64,000 bases of DNA from a virus. Positions within the stretch are counted from its first letter, which is position 1; each line of letters opens with the position of its first letter. Under the pieces are notes generated by a model. It did not search any database. It worked only from the letters and a program-made list of their open reading frames with translations, and had not been told where the DNA came from. This document shows, in pieces, positions 544-43,642 of the stretch. Made by a program: the position numbers and the translations under genes. The stretch lies in IMG/VR virus record IMGVR_UViG_3300011113_000784, positions 1 to 64,000 of that record; one strand, given 5' to 3'.

Positions 544-566
544 TTATCAAGTGAGGACACGCTTCT
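544..566 (-). repeat. Solitary degenerate CRISPR repeat handle AGAAGCGTGTCCTCACTTGATAA
   Basis: 17/23 identity to the 3' 23 nt of the array repeat; 3' stem arm weakened. Confidence 0.55.
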
Positions 567-592
567 ATTACAATTAGAGTGGCGTGTCCTCA
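552..592. promoter_or_regulatory. Intergenic inverted repeat (TGAGGACACGC / GCGTGTCCTCA) overlapping a CRISPR-repeat-like 23-mer
   Basis: 11-bp perfect arms at 552-562 and 582-592 between the two tube genes. Confidence 0.7.
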
Positions 593-648
593 TAATAGAT
601 TAAGGTTAGCTATATTAGAAATCTTATTGAGGATTATAAAATTTAATT

Positions 649-1230
649 ATGGTTAACATGGGTGTTGGTTTTGCCTCTTACGCAGTATTTAAGAGGCAAA
701 ACCGTTTTATCATGAACATACCCGATGTAACTCATGTTGGGAAAGGTTCATCTAGAATTTACAACAAAGTTTTAGTGGAGGAAAGGTCTGCAAGACCAAG
801 TATATCTTTTGAAGAAGTAAAAGTGCCACATTTAATAGAAACTGTAACTTATGCAGGAAGACCAGTTTGGAATGATTTAAAAGTTACACTATATGATATA
901 GCAAGAACAAATCCTATATGGCAATGGATTGGCGCTAATTATTATGTTAAGAAAAATGACGGTGCAGGAAAACCGGGAATAAATTATTTTGGTAGCGTTA
1001 ACAATAACTTTAAAAGAGATATAAAAATATTTATGCTAGATGGTTGTGGTTATGCTTTAGAAGCATGGACATACATGAATGCATTTCCAAAAGAAGTTGA
1101 CTATGGCGATACAGACATGGAAAGACAAGAAGCCATGAGAGTGAATGTCACTTTTAAATATGACAGAGCATATTGGGAAGCCTGTGATGCCAATATGGTC
1201 AACTTAGCTGCCCAATATATGATAAGATAA
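649..1230 (+). CDS. Second tail tube-like protein (gp19 paralogue)
   Basis: KRQNRF..ARPSISFEE..AGRPVWNDLKVTLYD..MLDGCG..WTYMNAFPKEVDYGD..VTFKYD; shares LDGCGY-LE-W with the upstream ORF. Confidence 0.8.
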   Translation: MVNMGVGFASYAVFKRQNRFIMNIPDVTHVGKGSSRIYNKVLVEERSARPSISFEEVKVPHLIETVTYAGRPVWNDLKVTLYDIARTNPIWQWIGANYYVKKNDGAGKPGINYFGSVNNNFKRDIKIFMLDGCGYALEAWTYMNAFPKEVDYGDTDMERQEAMRVNVTFKYDRAYWEACDANMVNLAAQYMIR

Positions 1231-1231
1231 T

Positions 1232-1501
1232 TTATTCTTCGTCTTGTAACTCTGCGTATTCACCAGCATCTAAAAACTGAGCTACTTCAAGTATTTTGCG
1301 ACATTCCTCAAGGAATGTTTCTAATTCCTTGTTTTTCATGTTGAGAATGCGACAAGCACCAGACTTATTAAGTCTGCCCTTTTTGGTGTAAACTAGATTT
1401 TCATTTGAAAGTAATAAATTAATTTTTTCTTTTAGATAACTGTTTTCGAGCATGTAGAGCAATTCGCCATTTTCTATATCTTCCAGAAACTTGTTCTTCA
1501 T
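1232..1501 (-). CDS. Hypothetical protein with probable C-terminal HTH
   Basis: ATG at 1501 with SD AGGAG; GRLNKSGACRILNM helix-turn-helix-like segment. Confidence 0.65.
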   Translation of the reverse strand: MKNKFLEDIENGELLYMLENSYLKEKINLLLSNENLVYTKKGRLNKSGACRILNMKNKELETFLEECRKILEVAQFLDAGEYAELQDEE

Positions 1502-1514
1502 GAAAATCTCCTGT

Positions 1515-1536
1515 GTGTCATATGGGACACGCTTCT
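1515..1536 (-). repeat. Solitary CRISPR repeat handle AGAAGCGTGTCCCATATGACAC in a 5' UTR
   Basis: 19 of 22 nt match an array repeat with one gap; intact GTGTC/GACAC stem; 2 nt before the SD. Confidence 0.75.
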
Positions 1537-1595
1537 GGCGTGATGCGAACAAGAATAAATTAGTTATACTAATAAAACATAAATTTCAATTTAGA

Positions 1596-2084
1596 TCAAA
1601 TTCTTTTTATGGGAATTTCTTTGCTAACTTTAGTAAAATAAAATTCCTGATATCGCTTTTTTAATTCTTCGAAGTTTTTATTTGATCTGTAAATTTGTCG
1701 TAAATGGTGAATTAGACAAGTGGTTAGGAAATTAAAAGCTTTGCTTCCACGATGAGGATCAAATCGTTCTATCTTAGCAAAACAGATAAAAACGCCTTCT
1801 TGAACGGCATCATCATAATCAATTTTTTGGAAATTTCTAAAACGAACAATATTTTCCGCAAGTGTAAAAAATTCTTTAGCCAAATTATCCTGACTTTGTT
1901 TTAGCTTTTTTTCGTTTTCTATTATTTTATTTTCATCAATTTGCAATGTTGGTTTATCGACATATTGACGATGAATTTCATAATCTTCTTTTAAAAGTTC
2001 ATATTTTCTTTTATTCTTTTTAGCTTGTTGGAAATCAATAATATTTTTTTCTAGATACTTATTATCAAGATAATGGTTACTCAT
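1596..2084 (-). CDS. Sigma factor, T4 gp55-like late transcription sigma
   Basis: N-terminal HYLDNK; region 2 DDAVQEG..C..KIERFDP-RGSKAFNFLT; start reassigned to MSNHY at 2084. Confidence 0.75.
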   Translation of the reverse strand: MSNHYLDNKYLEKNIIDFQQAKKNKRKYELLKEDYEIHRQYVDKPTLQIDENKIIENEKKLKQSQDNLAKEFFTLAENIVRFRNFQKIDYDDAVQEGVFICFAKIERFDPHRGSKAFNFLTTCLIHHLRQIYRSNKNFEELKKRYQEFYFTKVSKEIPIKRI

Positions 2085-2106
2085 ATTAAAAATATAGTGT
2101 GAGTTC

Positions 2107-2871
2107 ATGAAAATAAATTGTGCAATAATAGTAGATTCTATCGAAGAAAAAGAAAGTTGTTTAACTAAATTTAAAAATTTGGAAAATAAAACATTTTTTA
2201 CTTTCAATAATGCTATCAATAAAATTAATAAACTAAAAAGCAAAAAAAACTTTTTTGTAGAGTTAGAATCATTTTACAAAAAAGAAATATTTTATATAAT
2301 TCATCCAGATGAAGAGTTAGTATTTTTTGATGAAGATGAAGCATTAAAATCACATTTTAATTTGATTGTTGATGATTGGGTAATAAAGACAAGAAGAAGT
2401 AGCGCAAAAGAAATAGCTGTGTCAAAAATATTCATTAAAAGCAGTTTTAAAAATATTAAAAAATTTGACAATGAGTGGTGTGATATTTACCAAAATAATA
2501 AAAACTTTGCTTCTAAATTAAAAGAATATATTTACATATACGATTTAGAACCAAATGAAATATTTGTAATATACCAATATGTTTTAGAACAATTAAAATT
2601 AAAACAATATAATAAGGAATTATTTTATTTAATAAAATCATTTTTGGAAAAACATCCTACATTTTTAGAATTAATTAATCTTTGGGGAGACTATCTTTAT
2701 GAAATAAATTTATTTTTTGATGCAAAAAAATGTTATGAAAGTGCTTTAAAAATCGCCGGTGATAGAAATTTATATGATTTTCTACCAATGATTCCAAGCA
2801 TGCACAAAACGCATCCTGAAAAAATGATTTCAAATATAGAAAAAATAATTTCTAAATACGATGCTATTTAG
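2107..2871 (+). CDS. Hypothetical protein with C-terminal TPR-like repeat
   Basis: LWGDYLYEINLFFDAKKCYESALKI TPR-like helix pair. Confidence 0.5.
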   Translation: MKINCAIIVDSIEEKESCLTKFKNLENKTFFTFNNAINKINKLKSKKNFFVELESFYKKEIFYIIHPDEELVFFDEDEALKSHFNLIVDDWVIKTRRSSAKEIAVSKIFIKSSFKNIKKFDNEWCDIYQNNKNFASKLKEYIYIYDLEPNEIFVIYQYVLEQLKLKQYNKELFYLIKSFLEKHPTFLELINLWGDYLYEINLFFDAKKCYESALKIAGDRNLYDFLPMIPSMHKTHPEKMISNIEKIISKYDAI

Positions 2872-2873
2872 TA

Positions 2874-3278
2874 TCAAAATATACTATCTAGTTCATTGAT
2901 AATTACGGTTACTTGGTCTTCATACCTTGCCATTGCAATTTGTTTGCGTCCTGCTGGAAGCTTTTTCATTTCCTTTTCAAGATCGCCAATTGAGCAGCTT
3001 ATAACTCGCCAGTTGTTTTTAGCCAATCTTTCAATTTCTTCTTCTTGAGAAAGGACTTCTTTACCGGGAAAAAAAGCAAGAACTTGATCTTTAGCCTCTT
3101 TGATAATTTTCTTGTAAAGAGGGACATTACAAGAACAACTAGGATTATTGATGAATTTCTGAACTTCTGGAGCTAAAGATTCTGGCAATGTAGAACGAAA
3201 CTTTTCGTCTTTCATTGCAGCCTTGATATCCATCAAGGAGACATAACTTTTAGATTTTTGGTTGTTCTGGTCGCTCAT
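2874..3278 (-). CDS. Hypothetical protein
   Basis: 134-aa ORF in a tightly packed minus-strand operon. Confidence 0.7.
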   Translation of the reverse strand: MSDQNNQKSKSYVSLMDIKAAMKDEKFRSTLPESLAPEVQKFINNPSCSCNVPLYKKIIKEAKDQVLAFFPGKEVLSQEEEIERLAKNNWRVISCSIGDLEKEMKKLPAGRKQIAMARYEDQVTVIINELDSIF

Positions 3279-3513
3279 ATGTTCTCACCCTTAATGCATG
3301 TCCACATGATCTACATCTATACAGAGTTACTTGTTTTTTAATTTTTTCTTTATCAGAATCTTTTTTGATTGTATTTTGAATATCAGATCTTTTTGCCTGA
3401 TAAAGATTCTCTAAATCTTTATCCAAGTATTTTTTGCCACAGTTAGCACAGATAATTTGTGTTTCAGTCCGATATGACACTATTAGCTTCCAAATAAGTT
3501 TGAAGAAATGCAA
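3250..3513 (-). CDS. Small zinc-ribbon protein (true start probably internal)
   Basis: CANCG and CRSCG pairs. Confidence 0.6.
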   Translation of the reverse strand: MHFFKLIWKLIVSYRTETQIICANCGKKYLDKDLENLYQAKRSDIQNTIKKDSDKEKIKKQVTLYRCRSCGHALRVRTYERPEQPKI

Positions 3514-3778: not shown

Positions 3779-3780
3779 GT

Positions 3781-4149: not shown

Positions 4150-4228
4150 AAAAATTCTCCTGTAATAATATAGTTTTAAATAAATTACACTAAATTAAAA
4201 TTAAGTTTTGATGTAAAAAGGGGAAATT

Positions 4229-5514: not shown

Positions 5515-5516
5515 GT

Positions 5517-6365: not shown

Positions 6366-7769
6366 ATGAATCTTGTCGAAAGATTGAAGAAACATTTTGA
6401 ATGTGAAATGAATGTTCTTCTTGTAGGAGAACACGGGGTTGGAAAAACTTCCATTATCAAACAAGTGTTTGAAGATGAAGGTTTAATTCTAAATGAATCG
6501 TGGTTGTACTTTTCAGGTTCTACACTCGATCCTTGGGTCGATTTTATCGGCATACCCAAAGAAGTCGAATACAATGGTAAAAAGTGCATAGAAATTGTAC
6601 CACCAAAGGCTTTTGCTGATGAAGGTAAGATTCAAGCCATTTTCATCGATGAGTTTAACCGATCACCTAGCAAGATTAGAAACGCTCTACTTGAATTATG
6701 CCAATTTAAATCAATCAATGGCAGAAAATTCCCTAACCTTAAAGTTGTTTGGGCAGCTATCAATCCAGAAGACGAGAACAATACATATGATGTGGAAAGA
6801 CTCGATCCAGCCCACAAGGATCGATTCCATGCTAATCAAATTGTTGTCCCATATGCTTGTGACATGGAATATTTTAAGGGCAAATACGGGGAAGATGTCG
6901 CATCTGCTAGCATTTCTTGGTGGAATGCTCTTCCCGAATTGATTAAAAAGCAAATATCTCCCAGAAGATTAGATTATGCTCTTCATTTCATGAGCAAAGG
7001 CATTCCTTTGGAAGATATTTTGCCAAAAGATAGCAATATCTCAAAGCTAAGACAAGATATCAGCAATGGACCAGTGGATAAGAAATTATCAAAGCTTTTT
7101 GAAACCAAAAACTTCAAAGAAGCAAAATTGTTTCTAAATGTTGAAAATAACTACTTGTCTGCTATCAAAATAATTGATGGTAACAAGAAATATATGGAAT
7201 TCTTTATTCCATTGCTCAAAAAAGAAAAAATATGTTTATTGATATCTGATGATAATATGGCATCATCGGATTTCATTTTGTCGAACAAAGATAACAATAC
7301 TGAATTCAAGTCTGCAATAGAAAGCATATTGACAGCTAGTGCGAATCCAAAAGCTTTGATGAAAATAAGGTCTTATTTCGCTAACACAAGTGCTAGCGAA
7401 GTGGTAAAAAACAAAGATATATCTGTTGATTCTGTTCTAGCACCATTGTCTAATGAAATCTACTTAGAAAGAATTAACAAAGCTGATAAAAAAGATCAAA
7501 TAAAAATTGTTTTAAGCAATTTTCCTGATAATCCCACTAGCGTTGTCAGCGAAAAGACAATGAGTATCATTGCAAATTTCATTATTGAAAAATGGGAAGC
7601 AACTATTAAACAACAAAACTTAGAATTAATCATAAAGATTTGGAATACTTGTTACAAGCAAGCTGATAAAATGTTTGTTGCCAAGAATTTCAGCAACAAA
7701 GAATTATGTCGCAAATGTTTTAATCTTGGGATCATAACGCAAATGGAAGGTATGGCAAATGGATATTAA
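6366..7769 (+). CDS. MoxR-like AAA+ ATPase
   Basis: Walker A GEHGVGKT, Walker B IFIDEFNR, AAINP, LDPAHKDRF; SD AAGGAGG before ATG 6366. Confidence 0.9.
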   Translation: MNLVERLKKHFECEMNVLLVGEHGVGKTSIIKQVFEDEGLILNESWLYFSGSTLDPWVDFIGIPKEVEYNGKKCIEIVPPKAFADEGKIQAIFIDEFNRSPSKIRNALLELCQFKSINGRKFPNLKVVWAAINPEDENNTYDVERLDPAHKDRFHANQIVVPYACDMEYFKGKYGEDVASASISWWNALPELIKKQISPRRLDYALHFMSKGIPLEDILPKDSNISKLRQDISNGPVDKKLSKLFETKNFKEAKLFLNVENNYLSAIKIIDGNKKYMEFFIPLLKKEKICLLISDDNMASSDFILSNKDNNTEFKSAIESILTASANPKALMKIRSYFANTSASEVVKNKDISVDSVLAPLSNEIYLERINKADKKDQIKIVLSNFPDNPTSVVSEKTMSIIANFIIEKWEATIKQQNLELIIKIWNTCYKQADKMFVAKNFSNKELCRKCFNLGIITQMEGMANGY

Positions 7770-9042: not shown

Positions 9043-9575
9043 TCATCATAAAAGAAATCATTGTCAAGTTTGAGTAGCGTTTCTAATGCTACTCCAGTCC
9101 ATTCTTTGTATTTAATTGAATATTCAAACTCATAACCAATTAAATCTTTGGTTAAAAGAAAAGCTAACCAAGGTTTACGATTTCTTTTCCAACACACCAT
9201 TGGCTTTCTACCACATCTTTTGCTATCATCAGTTACTTGTTCCATGAAACTGTCTAGTTCTGAATTTCCCTTAATGAATATGGAATTAATATCAATTCCG
9301 TCATAGCCACCTTTGCTCTCTAAAACAAATTTAAAACCTTTAGGGACAACTAAGTCGCCACTAAAAACTTGAGTGGCTTGTTCTGTCATCTTTTCAACTT
9401 GACCCCAACGATTGCCGCTGCCAATAGAACGGGTAAAAGGCATATTAAATCTATTAGACAATATCTTAGTCAACTCCAATTCAGTTCTATTTCCCTTTTT
9501 CTTTCCATTTACTTTTTTAGGTTTTCTTGGTTGTATATCTTCTATATCAAGACCTGAAAAATCATTAGTACTCAA
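9018..9575 (-). CDS. Holliday junction resolvase, PD-(D/E)XK family
   Basis: KKKGNRTELEL, SGD..ESK. Confidence 0.7.
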   Translation of the reverse strand: MSTNDFSGLDIEDIQPRKPKKVNGKKKGNRTELELTKILSNRFNMPFTRSIGSGNRWGQVEKMTEQATQVFSGDLVVPKGFKFVLESKGGYDGIDINSIFIKGNSELDSFMEQVTDDSKRCGRKPMVCWKRNRKPWLAFLLTKDLIGYEFEYSIKYKEWTGVALETLLKLDNDFFYDDHSKSDNI

Positions 9576-11479: not shown

Positions 11480-11518
11480 ATTTCTATTTATTAACAAAGT
11501 ATCAAATGTTGTTTTTTA

Positions 11519-12379
11519 TTAGATCATTTTTATTGGCAAATTTGCATAATGTTCTTCCAATCCCGGTATTATTTTCCTCATAAAATAATTATTCTTCAAA
11601 ATATCTTTAAAATATTTGGAATTATAAACAGCCGATGGTATTCCTTCTGGTGAAGCTGACATTAAATGTATGTTATTGAATCGTTTAGCTAAACCATCTT
11701 GTTGAAGAATTAGCAAGCCAGAAGTGCCATTGTTACGAACCGTAATGTTATAAAAGATGTCCATAAATCTTGCTTTATCTCTTCTTCTGAAATTTCTTAA
11801 CATGGTTTCTTCTTGAATGCTGCACCTTTGATCACAATGTGGATAAACATTTTTAATATAATTTATTTTATCGTATTTACCATTCATTATGTCATTGTAT
11901 TCATCATCAATAAATTGTGTATATTTTTCAGTCGCATCTTTGGTTGAATCAAAATAAATTATGCCACCATTGACACCTAATCCATCAGCATTCAAAATAC
12001 CAACTTTGTCCCAATTAAAATTTGAAAATTTATTAAGTAGAAATACATCTGCATCTAAATATATTCCTTTATCTTTGTTTTGTTTGGCATGAAGATAACA
12101 ATTAATATGTCTTGAAAACATTTTCCAATTCATATTTGGTTGATTGCATTTTTCATAAATTGGTTTTTGTGAAACAATTTCAAAGTTTAATTGTTTAGAA
12201 GATTCATAAACCAAAGCGGGAGCATCATCATTTTCATATGTGATGACAACTATTCTATTGTTTGGATAAAAATGACGCAACACTATGATGGAAGTTAAAA
12301 AGCAACCCCAAAATTTATGAAAACCTTTAGACGGAGAATTTGTGTAAATTGCATAATAAAACACTATTTCTTCTTGCAT
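11519..12379 (-). CDS. GT-A fold glycosyltransferase-like protein
   Basis: IYLDADVF (DxD), VNGGIIYF. Confidence 0.65.
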   Translation of the reverse strand: MQEEIVFYYAIYTNSPSKGFHKFWGCFLTSIIVLRHFYPNNRIVVITYENDDAPALVYESSKQLNFEIVSQKPIYEKCNQPNMNWKMFSRHINCYLHAKQNKDKGIYLDADVFLLNKFSNFNWDKVGILNADGLGVNGGIIYFDSTKDATEKYTQFIDDEYNDIMNGKYDKINYIKNVYPHCDQRCSIQEETMLRNFRRRDKARFMDIFYNITVRNNGTSGLLILQQDGLAKRFNNIHLMSASPEGIPSAVYNSKYFKDILKNNYFMRKIIPGLEEHYANLPIKMI

Positions 12380-12428
12380 GGATTAATTTAGTATTTTTAT
12401 ACTATTTTGATTTAGTAGCAGGGTCATC

Positions 12429-12608
12429 GTGTCATCTGGGGACACATTTCTGAGTCATTGCTAGATTGCGGCTGCTTTTTCTGGCGACTCCAACATGATC
12501 GTGTCAACTGGGGACACATTTCTGAGTCATTGCTAGACTAATCTGTCCAGACTCACGACCAACATACGACTGTGTCAGCTGGGGACACAATTCTGAGTCA
12601 TTGCTAGA
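12429..12608 (-). CRISPR. CRISPR mini-array: 3 x 37-nt repeats, 2 spacers, type V-I (Cas12i)-like; no cas genes adjacent
   Basis: Repeats at 12429-12465, 12501-12537, 12572-12608 = TCTAGCAATGACTCAGAA(A/T)TGTGTCCCCAG(A/T/C)TGACAC on minus; unique spacers of 35 and 34 nt; 3' GTGTC/GACAC stem. Confidence 0.92.
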
Positions 12609-12636
12609 AGACCGATAAGGACATACAAAGTCAAAA

Positions 12637-15087
12637 TTATCCACATTTGCTCCATCCACAAGATTTACACAAAACACAACCATCATTACGCTCAACCTGA
12701 TTGCCTTGACATGAAGGACATTCTTCACCATGCACCTTCGTTCCATCCTTGATGTACTTCTTCAAGGTTCGTGCCAACACCTTACTAAGACTAACAAGGT
12801 CACCCTTAGTTTTTTCTAGTTGGTGAACAACAAAACTAATGTCAGCGCCATGTCGTAAAGATGTGCTGACCATGCGACACAAGGCATCGCCATTTTCATG
12901 ATTATGAATGTTAGAAAGATTAAATTCTTCTTCCGCAACTCTGAAAACATATTTGCCACGATTAAGCTTTTTAAGAGTTCCCTTGTGTTCTTTTGACTTA
13001 ATTAACGGTTCGCCATTTTCTAAATTCAAGCCAGCAAATACTTCGTATGGATCGCCGCCAAGCAAGCCAACAACAACATAATATGGCTCACCCTTGACTA
13101 CAGAGAAATGAACCTCTGCATTAATGTCAGCAGGACGCTTGGGCGAGTCGTTCTTGATAATCTTAGCATCCTTCTTTTCTTCCTTCTTGGGCTTTTCAAC
13201 CAACACACCAGTACGACAGTTCTTGCGATATACGGTCATACCTTTGCAACCATACTTCCACGCTGCTTCATAAATCTTAGCGACTTGCTCTTCAGTAACA
13301 TCTTCTGGAAGGTTTACAGTCTTGGAAATAGCATGGTCAATATACTTTTGAGCTTCTGCTTGCAGTTCTACAGCAGCAACCCAGTCGATATCTTCTGCAC
13401 AACAACCAAACCAAGGTGATTTTTTGAGATCTTTTTCACCTGTAACATCCATCCACATTTTGACTTTGGGATGGTAGACTTCAAATTCCTGCCAATGATC
13501 ACCATTTTGATCAACGAAGTCTGTACGGGCATTCTTATCAGTTGGATTAATCTTTTTTCTGCGAGTGTACGGAAAAAGCATGAAAAGTGGTTCAACACCT
13601 GATGTAGTCTGAGTCATGATAGACACAGAGCCAGTAGGAGCAATGGTAAGATTGGCAATATTGCGTCTTCCATGCTTCATGATATCGTCATACAACTGAG
13701 GATCAATTTCTTTGAGCATCAAAAGGAATTCAGAATCTTTTTCCTTTTCCCTATCCCAAACAGGGAATGCACCAAGAACCTTTGCCATCTCAACACTAGA
13801 GCGGAATGAGCCAAGACACAAAGCTTTGCAAATCTTACCTGTCAACTTAACGCTTTCTTTGCTGCCATAAGCTAAACCAAGAGCAGCAATAGTATCACCA
13901 AGAGCAGTCAAACCAGTACCAGTTCTTCTGCCATTTTCGCATTTCTTGTGTACTTTTTCCCACAATTCCAATTCGTTTGCCTTAATAGTTTTAGATTCTG
14001 GATCTGATTTTATTTTCTTGATAATGGCTTCAACTTTTTCAAGCTCAAGATCAATCATGTCGTCCATTAGACGCTGACAAATCTTGGCATGTTGTTCAAA
14101 CAACGGAAAATCAAAGTGTGCATTCTTCTTGAAAGGATTGACAACATATGAAAATAGATTCAAAACCATTAAGCGGCAGGAGTCATAGCTGCATAATGGC
14201 AATTCGCTGCAAGGATTTGTTGATATGGTTTTATATCCTTCATCAGCATAACAATCAACAGCGTTGTACTTGGTAATACGATCCCAGAAAAGGAGTCCGG
14301 GTTCAGCACGAAGCCATGCATTATGAATAATCTTCTTCCACAATTCTCTTGCATCAACATAGACATCGTTATCGCTTGGTGGGGCATCGACAGGAAAACG
14401 CAAACGGAATTGCTCACCCTTTTCAACGGCTTGTAAAAATTCATCACTCAACAAAACAGATACATTTGCTCCAGTAACTTTTGTATCATCGTTCTTGATG
14501 GTGATAAACTTTTCAATATCTTTGTGAGCAACATGGATAGAAAGCATGAGTGCGCCACGACGACCAGCCTGACCAACTTCACGAATGGTGTTGCTATAGC
14601 GTTCCATCCAAGATGGAATGCCTGTGCTAGTACGAGCAGCGTTCTTTACGGATGCTCCAGATGGACGAAGGGTGGAAATATCAACGCCAATGCCACCTCG
14701 TCTCTTTGAAATTTGAGCAAGCTCTTCATCGGCTTTGAGAATACCACCATAGCTATCGGCTGGACTTTCAACGACATAGCAATTAGACAAAGAGATAACT
14801 TGATGGTTATTACCGATGCCAAACATCGGACTTCCTTGGGGCACAATATATTTAAACTTATGCAATAATGCATAAATTTGATCTTCAGTTAAAGGATCTC
14901 TATGATTAATTTTTTCAATTCTTGCAAATTCCCTTGCAATTCTACGATGCATTTGATCAGGAGTTTCTTCAAGAAGATTGCCATTGTTATCTTTTAAGGC
15001 ATACTTATCAAGAAAAACTTTGGCAGCAAGCTCATCTCCTTCAAAATAAGAAACACACTTTTCAAAAGCATCGCTGTACTGGTACAT
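12637..15087 (-). CDS. nrdJ: Class II (B12-dependent) ribonucleotide reductase
   Basis: SLSNCYV, TNPCSELPL, IAPTGSVS, KGMTVYR, C-terminal TSCPD-like domain and CPSC..CKSCGWSKC; no beta subunit nearby. Confidence 0.93.
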   Translation of the reverse strand: MYQYSDAFEKCVSYFEGDELAAKVFLDKYALKDNNGNLLEETPDQMHRRIAREFARIEKINHRDPLTEDQIYALLHKFKYIVPQGSPMFGIGNNHQVISLSNCYVVESPADSYGGILKADEELAQISKRRGGIGVDISTLRPSGASVKNAARTSTGIPSWMERYSNTIREVGQAGRRGALMLSIHVAHKDIEKFITIKNDDTKVTGANVSVLLSDEFLQAVEKGEQFRLRFPVDAPPSDNDVYVDARELWKKIIHNAWLRAEPGLLFWDRITKYNAVDCYADEGYKTISTNPCSELPLCSYDSCRLMVLNLFSYVVNPFKKNAHFDFPLFEQHAKICQRLMDDMIDLELEKVEAIIKKIKSDPESKTIKANELELWEKVHKKCENGRRTGTGLTALGDTIAALGLAYGSKESVKLTGKICKALCLGSFRSSVEMAKVLGAFPVWDREKEKDSEFLLMLKEIDPQLYDDIMKHGRRNIANLTIAPTGSVSIMTQTTSGVEPLFMLFPYTRRKKINPTDKNARTDFVDQNGDHWQEFEVYHPKVKMWMDVTGEKDLKKSPWFGCCAEDIDWVAAVELQAEAQKYIDHAISKTVNLPEDVTEEQVAKIYEAAWKYGCKGMTVYRKNCRTGVLVEKPKKEEKKDAKIIKNDSPKRPADINAEVHFSVVKGEPYYVVVGLLGGDPYEVFAGLNLENGEPLIKSKEHKGTLKKLNRGKYVFRVAEEEFNLSNIHNHENGDALCRMVSTSLRHGADISFVVHQLEKTKGDLVSLSKVLARTLKKYIKDGTKVHGEECPSCQGNQVERNDGCVLCKSCGWSKCG

Positions 15088-21172: not shown

Positions 21173-21982
21173 ATGAGATTTGTTGAATGGGCTGGCAAAT
21201 CACCTGATGTCGTTTTTGGTTTTGATAAAAGTATTCCATTGAAAAAAGAACTTCGTTACAGCGAAGAACCAATGGAGCCTTTACAGATTGAAACAACTTT
21301 GGATGAAATTGTTAATCTCGGAAAAATTGGAACAAAAGATCCAGTGAAAGATTTTGGTTCAATGGTAACTTATGGAGATCCAAATCAAGTCGGATCTATT
21401 CAAATCAAGTTTAGTCCATTTGGTTCTTGCCGTGCAACAATCATGCGAAGAATTAGTGACCTTGAAGGAGAGCCAACATGGATCACAAGATATTCTGTTC
21501 CAGTTATTAATGATTATCAACATGCATCTGAGGAAGATATCGCAGTTGAAAAAATGCTTGCTGTTAGAGTTCATGAAATAGCAGACTATCTTGACAAAAC
21601 AACATTAGAATCTCCTAATGCCAAATATGAAAGATTACAAGAACTAGTTGTAATGATTGCCGCTAACATGAAACTTAAACATCCAAAAGTCATGAATTTC
21701 CAAGGTGTAATGAAACAAGACGAAAATACATATATCATTTATTTTTCATATAACGGTTATGGAATTGAAGCTCCCGGTCAAAGGAAGGTAAATCAATTCA
21801 ATGTTTATGTTGAATTTGTAAAACAGAAGGGATTAATAAGATCATGGGGAGCAGAATATTCTGCACCTCATTTGCTGTATAACTACGAGCCTCAATCGCC
21901 TGAATGGGATGAGTATTTCTCTCCTGATCAAAACAAGAATGAGATCGTAACAGTTCTTGAAAACATTTTCAAGACTTATTGA
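21173..21982 (+). CDS. Hypothetical protein
   Basis: SD AAGGAG, N-terminus MRFVEW, 269 aa. Confidence 0.75.
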   Translation: MRFVEWAGKSPDVVFGFDKSIPLKKELRYSEEPMEPLQIETTLDEIVNLGKIGTKDPVKDFGSMVTYGDPNQVGSIQIKFSPFGSCRATIMRRISDLEGEPTWITRYSVPVINDYQHASEEDIAVEKMLAVRVHEIADYLDKTTLESPNAKYERLQELVVMIAANMKLKHPKVMNFQGVMKQDENTYIIYFSYNGYGIEAPGQRKVNQFNVYVEFVKQKGLIRSWGAEYSAPHLLYNYEPQSPEWDEYFSPDQNKNEIVTVLENIFKTY

Positions 21983-21983
21983 T

Positions 21984-22006
21984 GTGTCAGCTGGGGACAC
22001 ATTTAC
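21984..22006 (-). repeat. Solitary CRISPR repeat handle between convergent genes
   Basis: GTAAATGTGTCCCCAGCTGACAC, 21/23 to the array consensus. Confidence 0.88.
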
Positions 22007-22332
22007 TGATCAAGTTCTAGCAACTTGATATAACATTCTCCAAAGACTTCAATTTCTCCCATAAGGGCTTGAAATTCTTTTTGGGTATCGTTGATGAAAT
22101 CAAGTTCTCCCATCACACGCTTGGTTTCACTTTTAGAAAACTTGATAGCAGCTTTCAATCCATCATTCTTCAGGACTTTCATAACTTCAGCATAAGGTTT
22201 GTCCTTAGCAGCAAAGTGATAATATGAAAGTATAGCATCACCTTCTTTTGCCTTAGCTTTGGCAGCGATGTCGGCTGCGCCTTTACGGCGGTTGATAAGA
22301 AATTCCAAGGGATCGTCTGATTGTGGTTTCAT
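22003..22332 (-). CDS. Hypothetical protein
   Basis: 109-aa ORF whose stop overlaps the solitary repeat. Confidence 0.7.
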   Translation of the reverse strand: MKPQSDDPLEFLINRRKGAADIAAKAKAKEGDAILSYYHFAAKDKPYAEVMKVLKNDGLKAAIKFSKSETKRVMGELDFINDTQKEFQALMGEIEVFGECYIKLLELDQ

Positions 22333-28417: not shown

Positions 28418-29152
28418 ATGTTTGAAGTAGAATTTAAATATTATAAACAAAAAGAAGATCTCGATTATAACAAAGATGAGCCACTTGTTTTTAGAAACAA
28501 GTTTGGCAAAATCGATGAAGATTATCCAAAAGAAAAATTGGCTAAATATATTTTAACCCAATTAGCTCGGCGTGATATTTTTATCTACGATGTTGATGTT
28601 TATGAATTTACAAAAAAGAAAGTGAATTTTAAACTTGGTAAAAATGGTTTTTCAATTGCTGGAAGTAAATTTAACAATTCTGATTTAGCTGAAGATTGCA
28701 ATCTTGAAAATGATGTTCCAGCAGAGCCACAAGAAATTCCTCATGCGCCCGGTCCTCATTCACCAAAACCACCGATTCAGCAACCTCAACAAAACAAATT
28801 TGTTAATTTGGCAAATAGGATAAACGACACAAAGACAAGAAAGATTATGCGAAAAGTGGCGTTTGTTCCGCCCTTAAGGATGGATAAAACTAAGTTTCCT
28901 TATAAGTTTACATTAAATAAAGTATATCCAGTATATTCTGAAAGATATGTTACAAATGGTGTTGGCATGTATATTACAACTGTTGATGATAATGATAATG
29001 TGTTAGAAGTTATTGATGAATATTTTGTTCCCGCCAATGCTGCGTTAGAATTTGAGAATGAGATGGATGCTGGTAAGCGTGGAAACAATGATTTGTTAAA
29101 CTGGCAAGGTGATAGATCAACAGGACCGATGATTAATTTAAGGGGAAAATAA
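28418..29152 (+). CDS. Hypothetical protein
   Basis: 244-aa ORF in operon. Confidence 0.7.
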   Translation: MFEVEFKYYKQKEDLDYNKDEPLVFRNKFGKIDEDYPKEKLAKYILTQLARRDIFIYDVDVYEFTKKKVNFKLGKNGFSIAGSKFNNSDLAEDCNLENDVPAEPQEIPHAPGPHSPKPPIQQPQQNKFVNLANRINDTKTRKIMRKVAFVPPLRMDKTKFPYKFTLNKVYPVYSERYVTNGVGMYITTVDDNDNVLEVIDEYFVPANAALEFENEMDAGKRGNNDLLNWQGDRSTGPMINLRGK

Positions 29153-29156
29153 AAAA

Positions 29157-29444
29157 ATGAATCAGCGAGAACGAGATCAGAAGAAGAAGGCTCGTAAAAT
29201 CCAAGCAAAAAAAAGAGTTCTTGCTCGTAGAGAAGAACTTAGGAAAACACGAAAAGAAGAAGCAAGATTAGAGAAGGAATTTGAGGCTAGAGAGTCTAAA
29301 TACTTAAGCAGAGAAGAGATTACGCAACGATTGGAGCATAATCTCAAAATTCTTGAGCAGTATGAAAAGTTGTTAGCAGAGCAAGATGAATCACTTGACA
29401 AATCTTCCCCTTCTGACAACAATAGCAGTACACCTGTGGTGTGA
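29157..29444 (+). CDS. Basic coiled-coil hypothetical protein
   Basis: K/R/E-rich; SD AAGGGG. Confidence 0.6.
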   Translation: MNQRERDQKKKARKIQAKKRVLARREELRKTRKEEARLEKEFEARESKYLSREEITQRLEHNLKILEQYEKLLAEQDESLDKSSPSDNNSSTPVV

Positions 29445-31756: not shown

Positions 31757-31769
31757 TTGAGGATACAAC

Positions 31770-36238: not shown

Positions 36239-36862
36239 ATGTCAGCAGAAAAGTTTTACACAGGAAAATTGGTAAAGCCCAAGCTGATTAAGTTCACCCA
36301 TGAAAATTCAGAAAAAATTGCTTATAAAGTTTGTATAGAAGCAGATGAATATAATCTTTGTGTAGAAAGTGCCCGTAATATGTGGGCTAATAAGAAAAAA
36401 GGATCATATGGTAAAGGATTGGTTAATACCGAAGATGATCCCTATCGTACAGAAAGAACGGGAAAACTTGGAGAAATGGCTTTTTCTAAGATATTTCAAT
36501 TTCCTGTAGATCTCACCTATCGTGAAGGTGGAGATGACCAAGACTTTCTTTGTAATGGAAAGAAGATCAACATCAAAACCAGTACGAAGAAACCTTGGTA
36601 TGCCGCTGGCTTGGTCACTGCTGGACATTATCGAGGACAAGACTTTGTGCCTTTAGAAATCAAACATGATTATTATGTGTTTGGTTATATCGAAATGGAA
36701 GACAAAAAAGCCAACATCGCTTCAGTTGTGTTTGTTGGAGGTTGTGATAAAAACACATTAATCAATAGAGAAATTAAAAGAGCGATTAAAGGGCATCACA
36801 TGAACTATCAGATTTCTTATTCTGAATTAACAGACATTAATAAGATTTCTTTTAATCAGTAG
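36239..36862 (+). CDS. Putative PD-(D/E)XK nuclease-fold protein
   Basis: GKLGEMAF..GGDDQDF..INIKTS. Confidence 0.5.
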   Translation: MSAEKFYTGKLVKPKLIKFTHENSEKIAYKVCIEADEYNLCVESARNMWANKKKGSYGKGLVNTEDDPYRTERTGKLGEMAFSKIFQFPVDLTYREGGDDQDFLCNGKKINIKTSTKKPWYAAGLVTAGHYRGQDFVPLEIKHDYYVFGYIEMEDKKANIASVVFVGGCDKNTLINREIKRAIKGHHMNYQISYSELTDINKISFNQ

Positions 36863-37091
36863 GTTTTCCGAAAAAGTTTTCTGGATATTCCATTTTAACT
36901 ACTTTTTCGCCTTTGACTTCTTCTTCCCAAAAGCGTACCTGCTCCACAGGTACGCCTAGTTCAATATAATGACAATTGTCGTTTGCGTTAACTGGCATGT
37001 TAACATTTTTGCCTTCATATAATATGTTTACTTTGCAAGTTTTATTGTTTTTGTCGAAACAAAAACAATTTTTGCATTTTTTGTTATTCAT
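36852..37091 (-). CDS. Small Cys-rich protein
   Basis: CKNCFCF..CKV..NCH. Confidence 0.65.
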   Translation of the reverse strand: MNNKKCKNCFCFDKNNKTCKVNILYEGKNVNMPVNANDNCHYIELGVPVEQVRFWEEEVKGEKVVKMEYPENFFGKPTD

Positions 37092-37096: not shown

Positions 37097-37119
37097 GTGT
37101 AGTCTGAGTACACGCTTCT
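37097..37119 (-). repeat. Solitary CRISPR repeat handle AGAAGCGTGTACTCAGACTACAC in a 5' UTR
   Basis: 17/23 identity, same length, compensatory C-G to A-T stem pair; 5 nt before ATG 37091. Confidence 0.75.
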
Positions 37120-37167
37120 CATTTATTTATGATAGTGTGTCAAAGTAAAAAGTCAAAGGGTTTCAAC

Positions 37168-37815
37168 ATGAAGAACATCATTATTGGTTTGTTCGGACAA
37201 GCAGCTTGTGGCAAAGACACGATTGCTAACATTTTGACACCAAGGCTTTGGCAATATATTGATTATGAAAAGCCATTAGTTAGAAAAGTAGCTTTTGCAT
37301 ACAATGTCAAAAAAATATTTTGCGATTATTTCGATGTTGACATGGATTTTATTGAGCAATGGAAAAGGAATCCAGAACCACCTCCCGGTTTTTTGATGAA
37401 TGTTAGGCAATCACTTCAGATGATTGGTGATGGATTCAGAAAGATCAAAAGTTCTATATGGATTGATAAAGTGATCGACAAAGTAGCAAATGTTGTCATC
37501 ACAGATGGTCGCTATCTTAACGAAGCAAATACTATTAAACAAAAAGGTGGAATAAATATTTTAGTTAATCGCCCTTCACATAGAAATAATGACCAAAATG
37601 ATAGCGAAAAGATTATGGGAGAAGTATCGGAATATTTTACAACCAAGAATGTTTGCGGATATTTAGTTAGTGAAAAATATCCAATGTTTGATTACTGTTT
37701 GAACAATAATGGAGACATACAAGACCTTGAAAAAAAGGTTGTCAACAGCTTGATTCCTTTTATTATTAAAAAATTTGAATTAGAAGAGGTTTTACTTGTG
37801 GAAAAGGGCAAGTAA
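37168..37815 (+). CDS. Deoxynucleoside monophosphate kinase (T4 gp1-like)
   Basis: IIGLFGQAACGKDT, FA..K, RQSLQMIG, ITDGRYLNE. Confidence 0.85.
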   Translation: MKNIIIGLFGQAACGKDTIANILTPRLWQYIDYEKPLVRKVAFAYNVKKIFCDYFDVDMDFIEQWKRNPEPPPGFLMNVRQSLQMIGDGFRKIKSSIWIDKVIDKVANVVITDGRYLNEANTIKQKGGINILVNRPSHRNNDQNDSEKIMGEVSEYFTTKNVCGYLVSEKYPMFDYCLNNNGDIQDLEKKVVNSLIPFIIKKFELEEVLLVEKGK

Positions 37816-39798: not shown

Positions 39799-39848
39799 GC
39801 ATTGTTTCTTTACTATGCTATAATGTCGAATCTACAGAGGATTATGTA

Positions 39849-40718
39849 ATGGATGCTTTTTCGCTTCTGCCCACCACCAAAATTGATTGTTTGGACAAAG
39901 GGTTTGTCCAAATTGTTGATGTGATGCCACGGGAGATCCCCGAAGGTCAAACCTGCGATTACGCAATCTGTCAAGCTGCAAGAGTTTCGTATGGAGATGG
40001 AACTAAAACTGTAAATGAAGATAAAGGATTAGATCGTTATTTGATGAGACACAGCCATACGACTCCAAATGAAATGATTGTTTTTAAATACAGAATTAAA
40101 GTTCCCATTTTTATTGCTAGACAAATGACACGGCACAGAATGATTTCGCTGAATGAGGTGTCAGGAAGATATTCCGTTATGAAAGATGATTTCTATATTC
40201 CAAGATCTGAAGAAATAAGGGCACAATCAAAAACAAATAAACAAGGATCTGATGGCGCACTAGAAAAAGATCAAGCAGAAATTTATGCTCAATCTATTGA
40301 AAAACATTGTCGTGATTCATATGATATTTATTTGAAAATGATTGAATCTGGCGTATCGAGAGAACAAGCAAGAATGGTTTTACCTTTAAATTTGTATACT
40401 GAATTTTACTGGAAGCAAGATTTACATAATTTATTGCATTTTTTATCGTTAAGAACAGATTCACATGCTCAATACGAGATTCAAGTTTACGCCAATGCTA
40501 TGTTAGATTTAATAAGACCTCTCGTTCCTTGGACAATTGAGGCATGGGATGATTATCATGTCATGCGTGGAGCTGTTAAATTAACACGATTGGAAAAGGA
40601 AGCTTTAATTGAATTTATGCAAAACAAAAATTGTCAGGCTCCAGATATAAAAACGGACAACAAAAGAGAACAGGCTGAATGGAAAGAGAAAGCAAAAAAA
40701 TTAGGATTCAGTGATTGA
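39849..40718 (+). CDS. thyX: Flavin-dependent thymidylate synthase
   Basis: AARVSYG, RHRMISLNEVSGRY, REQARMVLP, LRTDSHAQYEI. Confidence 0.95.
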   Translation: MDAFSLLPTTKIDCLDKGFVQIVDVMPREIPEGQTCDYAICQAARVSYGDGTKTVNEDKGLDRYLMRHSHTTPNEMIVFKYRIKVPIFIARQMTRHRMISLNEVSGRYSVMKDDFYIPRSEEIRAQSKTNKQGSDGALEKDQAEIYAQSIEKHCRDSYDIYLKMIESGVSREQARMVLPLNLYTEFYWKQDLHNLLHFLSLRTDSHAQYEIQVYANAMLDLIRPLVPWTIEAWDDYHVMRGAVKLTRLEKEALIEFMQNKNCQAPDIKTDNKREQAEWKEKAKKLGFSD

Positions 40719-40770
40719 TTTTTGCTATATACAATAATTCCCCTAACTAATTTAGTTAAGGGGAAAAATT

Positions 40771-41199
40771 ATGAGCTTTGATAATTTCTATCGATATGTT
40801 TCTCTTGGTTTAAGTTCATTGACGCTTTTTGGTGTTATGATCTTGGTAAGCGCCAAGATGCCAAATAATTCTGGTTCAAAAATTAGTGAAACAGAATTAC
40901 AATCTCAACTTGCAACAAAAACATTGTATCTTGACAATGTAAACTGGATTCTTTCTAAGAATCCAGAGATTACAATTGTTGACAATCAGGTGTCAGATGG
41001 AATCAATGTCATATTTCATGAAGTGAAAGACACAAAGAATATTAGACTTGCTGATCCTAAGTTTTCCATGAAAGAAGATGATAAGACCGATAATGTTTTG
41101 GTTAAGATGCGAGCTTTTTGTAAGTCTTTAGCTGAAAATGTAAAGGGAAGGATGATTGTCACTAAGACATCTGTTATTGATTCAAGAATTTCAGAATAA
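40771..41199 (+). CDS. Membrane-anchored hypothetical protein
   Basis: N-terminal hydrophobic helix; RBS in a hairpin at 40738-40765. Confidence 0.65.
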   Translation: MSFDNFYRYVSLGLSSLTLFGVMILVSAKMPNNSGSKISETELQSQLATKTLYLDNVNWILSKNPEITIVDNQVSDGINVIFHEVKDTKNIRLADPKFSMKEDDKTDNVLVKMRAFCKSLAENVKGRMIVTKTSVIDSRISE

Positions 41200-41228
41200 T
41201 TTTGCTGACCAGCAAAGGATTACTATGG

Positions 41229-41513
41229 TCATGTCGGGCACAATAGTTTGGATTTGTTTTTCTTAAAATAATATTTGGAGGAAGATGGACGATTTTGAAG
41301 AGGAAGAAAGTTTTGAGAATTATTTAATTGTGATGGTTCTGACTTTTCTTTTTTGGCTTCTTCTTCTTTACTCTTTGCATCAAGTGTTTTGATCAACTCT
41401 TTGATTTCAGCTTTTTCAATTTCCTCTTTGCTAGGAAATTTTACGACTGGTGGCTCTTGAGCTAAGCAAATGCTTGATGCAAAGAGACATGTAAGAATTA
41501 TTCTATTTATCAT
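41229..41513 (-). CDS. Small secreted protein
   Basis: Signal-peptide-like MINRIILTCLFASSICLA. Confidence 0.6.
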   Translation of the reverse strand: MINRIILTCLFASSICLAQEPPVVKFPSKEEIEKAEIKELIKTLDAKSKEEEAKKEKSEPSQLNNSQNFLPLQNRPSSSKYYFKKNKSKLLCPT

Positions 41514-42793
41514 TCCTCGATGCCTTCAACGGCATTTGTCACAGTTTTTACTATCGCATCAAGAATGTCTTGACCATACAATTCAACTATTTTTGGCAGG
41601 ATGTTTTTAACTACCAGCTTTAGAAGCACGGTAGAAATTCCACCCATCTTTTGGTCTTTGAGCATTTCTTGCACTTGTTCTTTGCTAAGGGCACTAGCAC
41701 CCAAAGTTTTTTCGGTTTGATAATTAGCTTGCATTTTGATTTCAGACAACATGCTGAGTAAGAAATCAAGCACATTTGGACCAAATTTCTTAATCATTTC
41801 CATGATGAAGGATACAGAAAAATTACTTCTTAATCCTTCAGCAATAGTTGAAAGAACTTCTGGACCATATTTGCCCACTAAATCGGTCACATCGCTTGCT
41901 GCCATGCCTTTGCTGATGGCATCGTTCTTAAGGTCTTCTACTTCATTTTCTGGATAAAAGTACTTCGTAGTTGACATGTCTGACTCCATAGAGGTTTTAA
42001 CTACTGGAACATCATCTGCTTTGTTTGGATCGTTTGGATCATCCAAAACTCCTTGGAATGCAAAACAATCTAGCTCTCTACCACCAAAAGCTTCTTTTCT
42101 TAGATAGCAATAGCCTTTGATACCAAAATTAGAACCCCAGCTATTTTGGACTTTTACTAACCAGCCATACTTGGGGTGGTTTTTTAAACCACAAGCAAGC
42201 ATTGAGTGTCCACCAAGAACACCTCTAGCAAGAGGAGCAATGCCTTCTGAATCTACGCTAGTAAAATTATCGCCAACATTGATTCCTATGTTGACGACAA
42301 AGCCAAGATTCAAGGCTTGACAAATTTGATTAAATGATGTGCATTTATAGGCTTGATCTAGTTTAAATCTTGCTGCATTATCATATGCTGCCTTGGTCAA
42401 GCTTTTCTTGTAATAAACTTTATCACTTGGGAATGCATCGGTCTCACAAATGCCATATTTCATAGATGCGCTCATGGCATCAGAAATATAAGCACCATCA
42501 TCTGCTCCACCATTAATCAATGCATACATGAAAAATGGGTTGAAATTCTTTTCAACATTTTGACGCTGCTTATAAAGTATTTCCATGCCTGTAGCTGTGG
42601 CATGAGCTACGCAACTACTTGTATTTCTTTGATTTAAAATTCGGTGGCTTTCCCAAGACAGATCAATATCTCTAAGGGGCAAGGGATCTGCACCCATGAA
42701 AGTTGTGCCGAATAGAGGCAAATCATTTTCTGGGCTAGGCTTATAAGAAAGTACACGATAATATCCATCAAAAAATATTGCTGGAAAACTCAT
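41510..42793 (-). CDS. Papain-like (C1) cysteine peptidase with helical C-terminal domain
   Basis: Q..SSCVAHA, GGHSML, VQNSWG..G..GY. Confidence 0.88.
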   Translation of the reverse strand: MSFPAIFFDGYYRVLSYKPSPENDLPLFGTTFMGADPLPLRDIDLSWESHRILNQRNTSSCVAHATATGMEILYKQRQNVEKNFNPFFMYALINGGADDGAYISDAMSASMKYGICETDAFPSDKVYYKKSLTKAAYDNAARFKLDQAYKCTSFNQICQALNLGFVVNIGINVGDNFTSVDSEGIAPLARGVLGGHSMLACGLKNHPKYGWLVKVQNSWGSNFGIKGYCYLRKEAFGGRELDCFAFQGVLDDPNDPNKADDVPVVKTSMESDMSTTKYFYPENEVEDLKNDAISKGMAASDVTDLVGKYGPEVLSTIAEGLRSNFSVSFIMEMIKKFGPNVLDFLLSMLSEIKMQANYQTEKTLGASALSKEQVQEMLKDQKMGGISTVLLKLVVKNILPKIVELYGQDILDAIVKTVTNAVEGIEE

Positions 42794-42794
42794 T

Positions 42795-43556
42795 TTATTC
42801 TCCCTTTGTGATCTTGTTTAGGACTTTGATTACATCTGCATCAGTCTTTGGGATTGCGCTGTAATACAATACTGTTCCGTCACTTTTCTGAACAACAAAC
42901 AAAGTGTTGCCAGTCTTTTTCAAAAGCGTGTCCATATTTTTTTCTTTTACAATTTTGCTATTAATGTCATAGACTTTATAAAAACTTTTAGTGTTATTGA
43001 TAATATCTCTTATTTCTTTGCTGTTTAACACAGATGCTATTTCAGGAGAAGATTGGTTGTAATCCGTTAGGAAGGTTACATGTATGCCTTCTGTTACTTT
43101 TTCAGGAGTTACTTCTGGATCAACTGGTACTGGCTTAACAGGATCAGGCTTAATAGGATCGGGTTTTACAGGGTCTGTTCCTTTAATAGTAATGTCTGTT
43201 CGTGCAAATTCAGTTAATTTGCCATCAGCTAAAGCAATTGCAAAAACATTAACAACGCCAGATGGTGGTACGGAAACAATTAGACTGTTGGTAACATCAT
43301 TTGCAACAAATTTTACTTTGCTATTTCCGATTACAAACCATTTTACTTGACCCTTTGATTTCGCTTGAATAAGCATAAATCCTTCATTTGGATCAACTGT
43401 AACTGGCTCAGGCAGTTCTAATCCTTCAACTTTATTGGGTACGGAGTAAATTGGTGATTTGGGTACGGCTGGAGGTTCTGATGGTGCAAGAACACCATCA
43501 GCGAAAATATTTGTAGCTAAAGTTAATAAACAAAAAATTCGAAGCAGAATATTCAT
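42795..43556 (-). CDS. Secreted protein with Pro-rich (KPDP) linker
   Basis: Signal peptide; DPVKPDPIKPDPVKPVP. Confidence 0.7.
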   Translation of the reverse strand: MNILLRIFCLLTLATNIFADGVLAPSEPPAVPKSPIYSVPNKVEGLELPEPVTVDPNEGFMLIQAKSKGQVKWFVIGNSKVKFVANDVTNSLIVSVPPSGVVNVFAIALADGKLTEFARTDITIKGTDPVKPDPIKPDPVKPVPVDPEVTPEKVTEGIHVTFLTDYNQSSPEIASVLNSKEIRDIINNTKSFYKVYDINSKIVKEKNMDTLLKKTGNTLFVVQKSDGTVLYYSAIPKTDADVIKVLNKITKGE

Positions 43557-43619
43557 AGCATCTCCAAATTATTGGATTATTCTTTCGATAACACAAAATA
43601 ATTGCGTTAATCTAATCGT

Positions 43620-43642
43620 AGTAATGTGTGCCTAGATCATAC
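43620..43642 (+). repeat. Solitary CRISPR repeat handle AGTAATGTGTGCCTAGATCATAC
   Basis: 18/23 to the repeat at 12429; compensatory C-G to G-C pair plus a G-U wobble keep the 5-bp stem. Confidence 0.65.

Follow-up and report, generated by a model that had tools for sequence, protein, structure and literature searches.

Viral solitary repeat units (SRUs; Faure et al., 2019, cited in Camara-Wilpert et al., 2023, Nature, PMC10651486) are single units resembling the repeats of CRISPR arrays, which lie in intergenic viral DNA away from cas genes, some of them directly after a promoter-like box. Some viral SRUs act as RNA anti-CRISPRs (Racr), the proposed action being a mimicry of the repeat that occupies Cas proteins (PMC10651486). 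Elements of this kind are described here for a 64-kilobase (kb) window, i.e., the whole stretch of DNA studied (bases 1-64000 of a 110,967-base IMG/VR virus contig, G000), and for the remainder of the same contig. They are solitary copies of the last 23 nucleotides (nt) of a CRISPR repeat (hereafter handles), dispersed between the genes of a phage which also harbours a CRISPR mini-array of that repeat. The observation of dispersed handles is real and statistically solid, and it is well supported that the elements are handle-only solitary repeat units. Although the initial annotation had put them forward as a candidate new system, they are a many-copy, handle-only, type V-I form of SRU/Racr and not a categorically new system; the alternative raised there, of decoys resembling CRISPR RNA (crRNA), is the SRU/Racr idea already described (PMC10651486).

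The likeness to SRU/Racr elements holds for sequence as well as structure, but it covers only 23 of the 36 nt of the repeat, i.e., the processed handle (64%) instead of the whole unit. Further differences are the copy number (seven in 111 kb, not one), the divergence of the copies (16-20 of 22 positions matching, so that most would escape a SRUFinder-type filter set to 90% identity or more), the presence in this phage of a real array of the repeat, with spacers, and the subtype, V-I. Inhibition has been proven for some SRU/Racr and is proposed for the present handles; a host with a matching CRISPR-Cas subtype, which belongs to the definition of SRU/Racr, did not emerge from exact-pattern searches of GTDB and JGI data. 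The viral crRNA-like anti-CRISPR RNAs (Cracr or crlRNA; Liu et al., bioRxiv 10.1101/2024.10.29.618823) are likewise phage RNAs with a repeat-derived handle, which are loaded into Cas effectors of the host, the single-protein Cas12a among them, in competition with the host guides; these, however, carry a short guide matching a cas or toxin promoter, whereas the sequence after the present handles is the local gene boundary. Type V-I systems, whose crRNA does not need a trans-activating crRNA (tracrRNA; PMC8190297 for Cas12i1, PMC7567891 for Cas12i2), exist as phage-borne systems in huge phages (PMC7162821); the present fragment differs in having no Cas12i gene. Protospacers of type V-I systems have a 5'-TTN protospacer-adjacent motif beside them. 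Virus-borne mini-CRISPR arrays without cas genes have been described as interviral-conflict arrays and given a game-theory treatment (PMC7099407). The present array resembles them in being short and in differing in spacer content between close strains, but in the known examples, which are mainly archaeal, the repeats are of type I and the spacers target related viruses, whereas here no spacer target was found in the contig or its relatives, nor in phage and plasmid collections, and the array is accompanied by dispersed single handles. The promoter-early plus stem-loop (PeSL) cassettes of T4-type phages, reportedly described by Arbiol et al. in 2010, are said to combine a promoter and a hairpin in a short unit that sits at gene boundaries and varies among related large phages; in the present case, the hairpin is instead a CRISPR handle, the upstream parts are unrelated and no link to gene shuffling is seen.

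The mini-array (12429-12607, minus strand) comprises three 36-nt repeats (12572-12607, 12501-12536 and 12429-12464) and two spacers of 35 and 36 nt (12537-12571 and 12465-12500, respectively). It begins ~29 nt past the stop codon of a nrdJ-like ribonucleotide reductase gene (12637-15087) on the same strand, thereby sitting in the nrdJ 3' untranslated region (UTR) without a leader of its own. In the array consensus, the 3' 23 nt of the repeat are AGAAAT GTGTC CCCAGNT GACAC, and this end folds into six unpaired nt followed by a stem of 5 base pairs (bp) with a 7-nt loop, closed by the final base. The mature Cas12i1 guide has the same plan, with a 23-nt repeat region, unpaired bases A(-23) to U(-18) that occupy the processing pocket, and closure of the stem by G(-17):C(-1), the guide part being 20 nt long (PMC8190297). 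The array is therefore assigned to type V-I by repeat architecture alone, i.e., by the match to the layout of the 23-nt mature handle in a 36-nt repeat, which agrees with the Cas12i-type form ascribed to the handle at the outset. The repeat is presumably also similar in sequence to those of Cas12i1 and Cas12i2.

A 22.9-kb sister contig (G001), 94% identical to the window over positions 1-12.6 kb and 91% identical beyond the array up to 16.8 kb, carries at the same locus (L008, 17778-18491, minus strand) an array of 11 repeats and 10 spacers, one spacer being common to both arrays. Relatives with an 84-85% identical reductase have a terminator hairpin in place of the array, and in L041 the reductase is followed directly by a gene for a protein of 286 amino acids (aa), with no array in between. 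Considering the longer array in G001 and the array-less distant relatives, the array is a genuine, strain-variable CRISPR array gained by one lineage. The guanine-plus-cytosine (G+C) content of the spacers (46-50% in G000 and 41-62% over both arrays) is far above that of the phage (~33%), which points to a much G+C-richer source, and this could be the host or another element. In the G001 array, one repeat lacks 11 internal nt (CTAGCAAT fused straight to GTGTCC), one spacer is just 20 nt long, and the three repeats at the reductase end carry AGAAGT, not AGAAAT.

The solitary copies were searched for with a covariance model built from the array repeats alone (R1), which is thus unbiased towards them. 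Seven units (S1 to S7) occur in the 111 kb, 9-68 kb from the array, S6 and S7 lying past the window on the same contig. R1 found six of these (S2-S7) at E-values of 6.5e-6 to 0.07. The best copy is S3 (21984-22006, minus strand; GTAAAT GTGTC CCCAGCT GACAC; 20/22 matches; 6.5e-6), followed by S6 (contig 67655-67677, or L025:3755-3777, plus strand; AGAAAC ATGTC CTCAGAT GACAT; 2e-4), S5 (43620-43642, plus strand; AGTAAT GTGTG CCTAGAT CATAC; 17/22; 2.4e-3), S7 (contig 79912-79934, or L025:16012-16034, plus strand; AGAAGT GTGTC TACAATT GATAC; 7e-3), S2 (1515-1536, minus strand; AGAAGC GTGTC CCATAT GACAC, with a loop of 6 nt, one base shorter; 8e-3) and S4 (37097-37119, minus strand; AGAAGC GTGTA CTCAGAC TACAC; 16/22; 0.07, and 30 bits with the iterated model R2). 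R2 did not add any members and left a clear gap in score between the members (at least 27 bits) and all other matches (at most 16 bits). Further, against 300 dinucleotide shuffles with the array masked, scored at the 22 specified handle positions, eight sites with at least 16/22 matches were observed where 0.62 were expected, and five sites combining such a match with a full 5-bp stem where 0.053 were expected, with a maximum of one per shuffle. Two sub-threshold matches (56652 and contig 101397) lie inside open reading frames (ORFs) with broken stems and look like chance background, and no Rfam family was matched at gathering score. The initial annotation had listed S1 to S5 and all five are present, with the enrichment over shuffled sequence that it called for; the covariance model recovered four of them along with the two copies past the window, but not S1 (E 9, chance level). 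It had also noted that the single copies lack the 5' part of the repeat, and indeed none holds the 5' 13 nt. At S3, an apparent remnant of this part (a CTAG..TCAG similarity) was rejected, being conserved C-terminal coding sequence that is present in handle-less relatives too. Taken together, comparison of the sequences supports the derivation of the copies from the CRISPR repeat.

S1 (544-566, minus strand; AGAAGC GTGTC CTCACTT GATAA; 16/22) has its terminal pair broken and is probably a marginal copy, decayed or rearranged. Its 5' stem arm GTGTC forms part of an overlapping 10-bp hairpin (553-591, minus strand; GAGGACACGC paired with GCGTGTCCTC across a 19-nt loop), which competes with the handle fold and whose segment is conserved in G001. 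The 12-mer AGAAGCGTGTCC is exactly common to S1 and S2, and the 10-mer AGAAGCGTGT to S1 and S4, the latter occurring in three exact copies. S7 can form an alternative, longer hairpin using a second GACAC.

Although the copies have diverged, their fold has been kept. Among 13 distinct handles, 98.5% of the stem cells are paired, and cells compensated on both sides are found in S4 (C-G to A-U, the inner pair), S5 (C-G to G-C) and S6 (G-C to A-U, the outer pair), the first two of which had been read as compensatory from the start. G-U cells account for three more among the 13 handles, and S5 holds one G-U pair. The values for paired and for compensated cells were matched by 1-2 of 500 column shuffles, and in a sequence-only scan the full stem occurred in 5 of 8 matches, as compared to 8.6% of shuffled matches. 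The four unpaired bases AGAA show at least 90% conservation, whereas the next two positions (5-6) and the loop are variable. AGAA would be dispensable for a plain hairpin or a terminator.

Comparison with sister contigs (G001 and G009) and with ~430 kb of array-less relatives (G002 to G008) shows that S1-S6, as well as two further copies in G009, are insertions, whereas S7 has no counterpart for comparison. The inserted segment measures ~94 nt at S1 (absent from G005 and G007), ~21 nt at S2 (absent from G005, G002 and G007), ~61 nt at S4 (between divergent start codons, where L018 and L019 have 15 nt), ~64 nt at S5 (absent from G002, G003 and G006) and ~84-96 nt at S6, where the gene end has been rebuilt. 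At S3, 27 nt have been added in comparison with L012 and L013, namely the handle and a duplicated ATCA (4 nt), and in these two relatives the convergent genes overlap by ~7 nt (L012, 2230-2250); L014-L017 have no handle match at this place either. Owing to the ATCA duplication with the S3 handle (window 21975-22010), both reading frames stayed intact. As regards the S4 junction, relatives have the start of the downstream gene (36852-37091, minus strand) 15 nt from that of its divergent neighbour, with a small palindrome in between. The plus-strand ORF on the other side is listed from 37129, and relatives align only from residue 14, which suggests that translation probably begins at the ATG at 37168 instead; in that case, the S4 insertion would fall wholly between the two divergent genes.

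Copies also turn over between close strains. G001 has S1 in identical form, and at S2, with near-identical flanks, a handle differing in the loop and in positions 5-6 (AGAATT GTGTC TATAGCT GACAC). The 9.5-kb contig G009 (L042), 89% identical to window 28.8-38.3 kb, is devoid of S4 and carries two near-perfect copies at gene boundaries that G000 does not have, namely at 6503-6525 (minus strand; a net 23 nt have been inserted here, with a start codon 10 nt further on, orthologous to ~31757-31769 in G000) and at 9170-9192 (plus strand; in a ~63-nt insertion, orthologous to ~29141-29157), thus amounting to three presence/absence differences in 9.5 kb. Altogether, the three array-lineage contigs (143 kb) hold 11 solitary copies, while the ~430 kb of G002 to G008 contain neither an array nor a handle better than E 0.03. 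The occurrence of copies in array-bearing strains only, together with the differences between sisters, indicates that handles appear only with the array and are quickly gained and lost. Within the array lineage, S1 and S2 are kept in G001, and copies differ between sisters that are 89-94% identical. The DNA upstream of the handle in the longer insertions shows no likeness between sites, and a single mobile promoter-plus-handle cassette was rejected on account of these unlike upstream parts. A miniature inverted-repeat transposable element (MITE) or repetitive extragenic palindromic (REP)-like element was likewise rejected, the 4-nt duplication being seen at S3 only and the upstream parts being unrelated.

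All seven sites are non-coding or overlap a stop codon, in line with the gene-boundary placement of the initial annotation, and they fall into two settings. In sense, 5-24 nt before a start codon, lie S2 (in the leader of an 89-aa gene, 1232-1501, minus strand; it ends 2 nt before AGGAG, with the Shine-Dalgarno (SD) sequence at +3 to +7 and the ATG at +14), S4 (5 nt before the ATG, at +6, of a 79-aa cysteine-rich gene, 36852-37091), S6 (21 nt before a TTG start, at +22), S7 (22 nt before an ATG, at +23) and G009:6503 (ATG at +11). Just past a stop codon and antisense into that gene lie S1 (4 nt past the stop of the plus-strand gene 72-539), S3 (its end is 1 nt away from the TGA that terminates the plus-strand gene 21173-21982, and it overlaps in sense the TAA stop of the minus-strand gene 22003-22332), S5 (with a minus-strand gene on either side, one of which, 43653-45014, has its stop 10 nt away) and G009:9170. 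The two sense leaders (S2 and S4) and the three positions past the stop of an opposite-strand gene (S1, S3 and S5) claimed earlier are thereby borne out. At S4, a putative promoter-like box, TTGACT-16-TATCAT (37129-37156, minus strand; 10/12 consensus matches, a consensus match only), ends 9 nt before the first A of the handle, so that a transcript is predicted to start 1-3 nt before it; at G009:9170, the handle lies 5 nt after a putative sigma-70-like box, TTGACT-16-TAAAAT. A scan at S5 found no promoter-like box, and the remaining sites lie inside operons. The genes beside the handles encode mostly small proteins without known function and have no function in common.

These features can be brought together, with a probability of about one half, in the reading that the handle-only solitary repeats dock a Cas12i-type effector as RNA, most likely as Racr-like decoys. 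The handles would have entered as short insertions where these did no harm, between genes, and only in the lineage that also acquired the array, with gain and loss between strains. They would be transcribed within phage messenger RNAs (mRNAs) or, for some, from a promoter-like box that starts the RNA at the handle, and each handle RNA would then offer a docking site to the cognate Cas12i-type effector, the gene for which may lie on the missing 77% of the phage genome or be encoded by the host. An effector so docked would carry a non-targeting 'guide', and most likely this would on balance outcompete or decoy real guides, as Racr RNAs do. For handles situated 5-24 nt ahead of a start codon, the docked protein would also mask the ribosome-binding site, be it as a side effect or as a further function. 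A decoy or competitor is favoured by the retention of the protein-binding part, the high copy number, the strain turnover and the two promoter-fused copies, which are like described SRUs. Furthermore, a fixed regulon accounts less well for the differences in copies between sister strains than does neutral spread or a role of the dose or arms-race type.

Several points weigh against a docking decoy. No Cas12 or Cas12i-like gene is present on the 111-kb fragment, where no ORF has the size of Cas12i (about 1000-1100 aa, with RuvC), the fragment itself being ~23% of the genome; Pfam, PHROGs and PDB searches with the large ORFs returned the reductase, SbcC, DnaE, PrkA and tail-fibre or virion proteins. 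Host arrays or other arrays with this repeat were found neither in IMG/VR beyond the sister contig nor in JGI metagenomes or GTDB genomes. Two extra IMG/VR matches, within coding sequence, and two JGI metagenome matches, within an iron-sulfur protein gene, were discarded as chance, and the 185,579 species genomes of GTDB gave 0 matches and then five singletons, as chance predicts, in a search of exact patterns only which would miss diverged repeats. S1 and S5 are antisense to both neighbours, with no good promoter in the scan. The covariation counts are partly due to ascertainment, as the site searches reward pairing (the sequence-only scan is unaffected), and the variant stems could stem from variant source repeats instead of compensation in place. 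Lastly, if the effector is phage-encoded, a decoy against the phage's own enzyme is hard to justify.

A cis-regulatory network, as favoured by the initial annotation, is possible but rather unlikely. In this scheme, a Cas12i-type protein, probably phage-encoded, would bind the handles in phage mRNAs, cut just 5' of AGAA and stay on the downstream RNA, thereby hiding the SD sequence and start codon (S2, S4, S6, S7 and G009:6503), or else would generate antisense RNAs against gene 3' ends (S1, S3, S5 and G009:9170). Of the nine distinct sites, five have the start codon of the next gene at +6 to +25 from the handle, which puts the start or the ribosome-binding site in or just past the position of the 20-nt guide, and the other four lie 1-10 nt past a stop codon, antisense into that gene. 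The leaderless array in the nrdJ 3' UTR implies that the effector must already act on an mRNA, and S2 has been held at the same leader in two strains despite its change in sequence. However, 92% of the contig is coding (~8% non-coding) and the intergenic gaps measure 13-100 nt, so that any tolerated insertion comes to lie near a start or stop codon; what stands of the network proposal is the repeat origin, the excess of copies, their boundary position, the retained hairpin and AGAA and the restriction to the array lineage, while the proximity to starts and stops is to be expected anyway. Moreover, the two orientations are about equally frequent, the tagged genes share no function (being mostly unknown small proteins) and are unstable between sisters (S4 being absent from G009, and two G009 sites from G000), and the ~1050-aa RuvC effector that had been anticipated is not encoded on the 111-kb fragment.

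A related and distinctly unlikely proposition is that the phage has co-opted a Cas12i-type effector, probably encoded on its unsequenced part, to bind and regulate the messages of the phage itself. In that case, the 23-nt handle would serve as a portable tag, spread by precise insertion with boundaries that match the RNA-level processing site, which hints at an RNA-templated origin. Wherever such a tag stood in a leader or behind a stop codon, the protein would be drawn to it, either to cleave the mRNA at AGAA and mask the ribosome-binding site or to give rise to an antisense RNA.

That the copies are inert by-products, i.e., repeat fragments inserted through some array-linked accident of recombination, repair or integration and kept where harmless without any RNA function, is quite improbable as well. 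All tested copies are lineage-specific insertions with fast turnover, S1 looks decayed, and the unrelated upstream DNA leaves no common functional cassette, all of which would suit debris. Nevertheless, diverged copies hold 5/5 pairs via compensated changes along with the unpaired AGAA, the inserted unit is the functional 23-nt handle and not a random piece of the 36-nt repeat, and two copies stand at a precise distance from strong promoter-like boxes.

The same promoter-plus-handle layout at S4 and G009:9170 would fit crRNA-like regulatory guides of the Cracr/crlRNA type, in which the 15-30 nt past the handle serve as a short or partly matching guide, by which the effector would come to repress a promoter of the host or the phage, such as that of a cas or defence gene. 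A precedent is the reprogramming of Cas12a and type I effectors by viral RNAs resembling crRNA (bioRxiv 10.1101/2024.10.29.618823). This is nevertheless very improbable here, as the post-handle sequences have no match above chance elsewhere in the 111-kb contig and are mostly the neighbouring gene's own start or end, set by the point of insertion.

Ordinary hairpins unrelated to CRISPR, acting as weak intrinsic terminators on the opposite strand (hairpin followed by NNTTCT) or as stem-loop punctuation, are highly unlikely: even though the reverse complements of S6 and S7 were flagged as terminator-like and S1, S3 and S5 lie just past stop codons of opposite-strand genes, the terminator orientation would be antisense to the flanking genes at S2, S4, S6 and S7 (the S6 and S7 calls included), a stem of just 5 bp around a 7-nt loop is too weak to terminate transcription, the identity to the array handle reaches into the loop and AGAA, and the elements occur only where the array does.

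As for the surrounding gene content, the contig has a completeness of ~23% (CheckV) and is accordingly a piece of a huge phage genome, its closest record in phage collections being a 595-kb uncultured phage (34% identity in the helicase). The recognised genes comprise, besides the nrdJ-like reductase, those for SbcC/SbcD-like proteins, a DnaB-like helicase, DnaE, a full-length PrkA-type kinase/AAA protein (48305-50380, plus strand), large tail-fibre or virion proteins and a gp55-like late sigma factor (phrog_234; 1596-2243, minus strand), the last lying directly upstream of the gene tagged by S2. The 79-aa protein next to S4 has CxxC motifs and is conserved in relatives, with no known family. 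In comparison with G003, the array and a 286-aa gene (11519-12379, minus strand) fill window positions 11498-12636, between nrdJ and the next shared gene. The 286-aa protein has a DxD-like motif (LDADVF) and did not match any family, PHROG or PDB entry; it was rejected as an array-associated protein, as its homologue in L041 follows nrdJ without any array. An AT-rich palindrome of 16 nt at positions 14-29 past S3 (window 21955-21970) recurs exactly at 12110-12125 inside the 286-aa gene (E 4e-4 within the contig), which may be chance.

The present elements are distinct from known SRUs in being trimmed to the processed handle, in being many per genome, in their turnover between strains and in occurring alongside an array of the same repeat that looks functional. 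A separate question, posed by the precise 23-nt insertions, is how pieces of a repeat come to be copied about a genome. If the regulatory reading is true, the phage would provide a natural case of a class 2 CRISPR effector acting on a virus's own mRNAs. If, on the other hand, the decoy reading is true, RNA anti-CRISPR mimicry would extend to type V-I, and it would take the form of a dosage strategy in which many weak copies are carried inside ordinary transcripts and are missed by current SRU finders.

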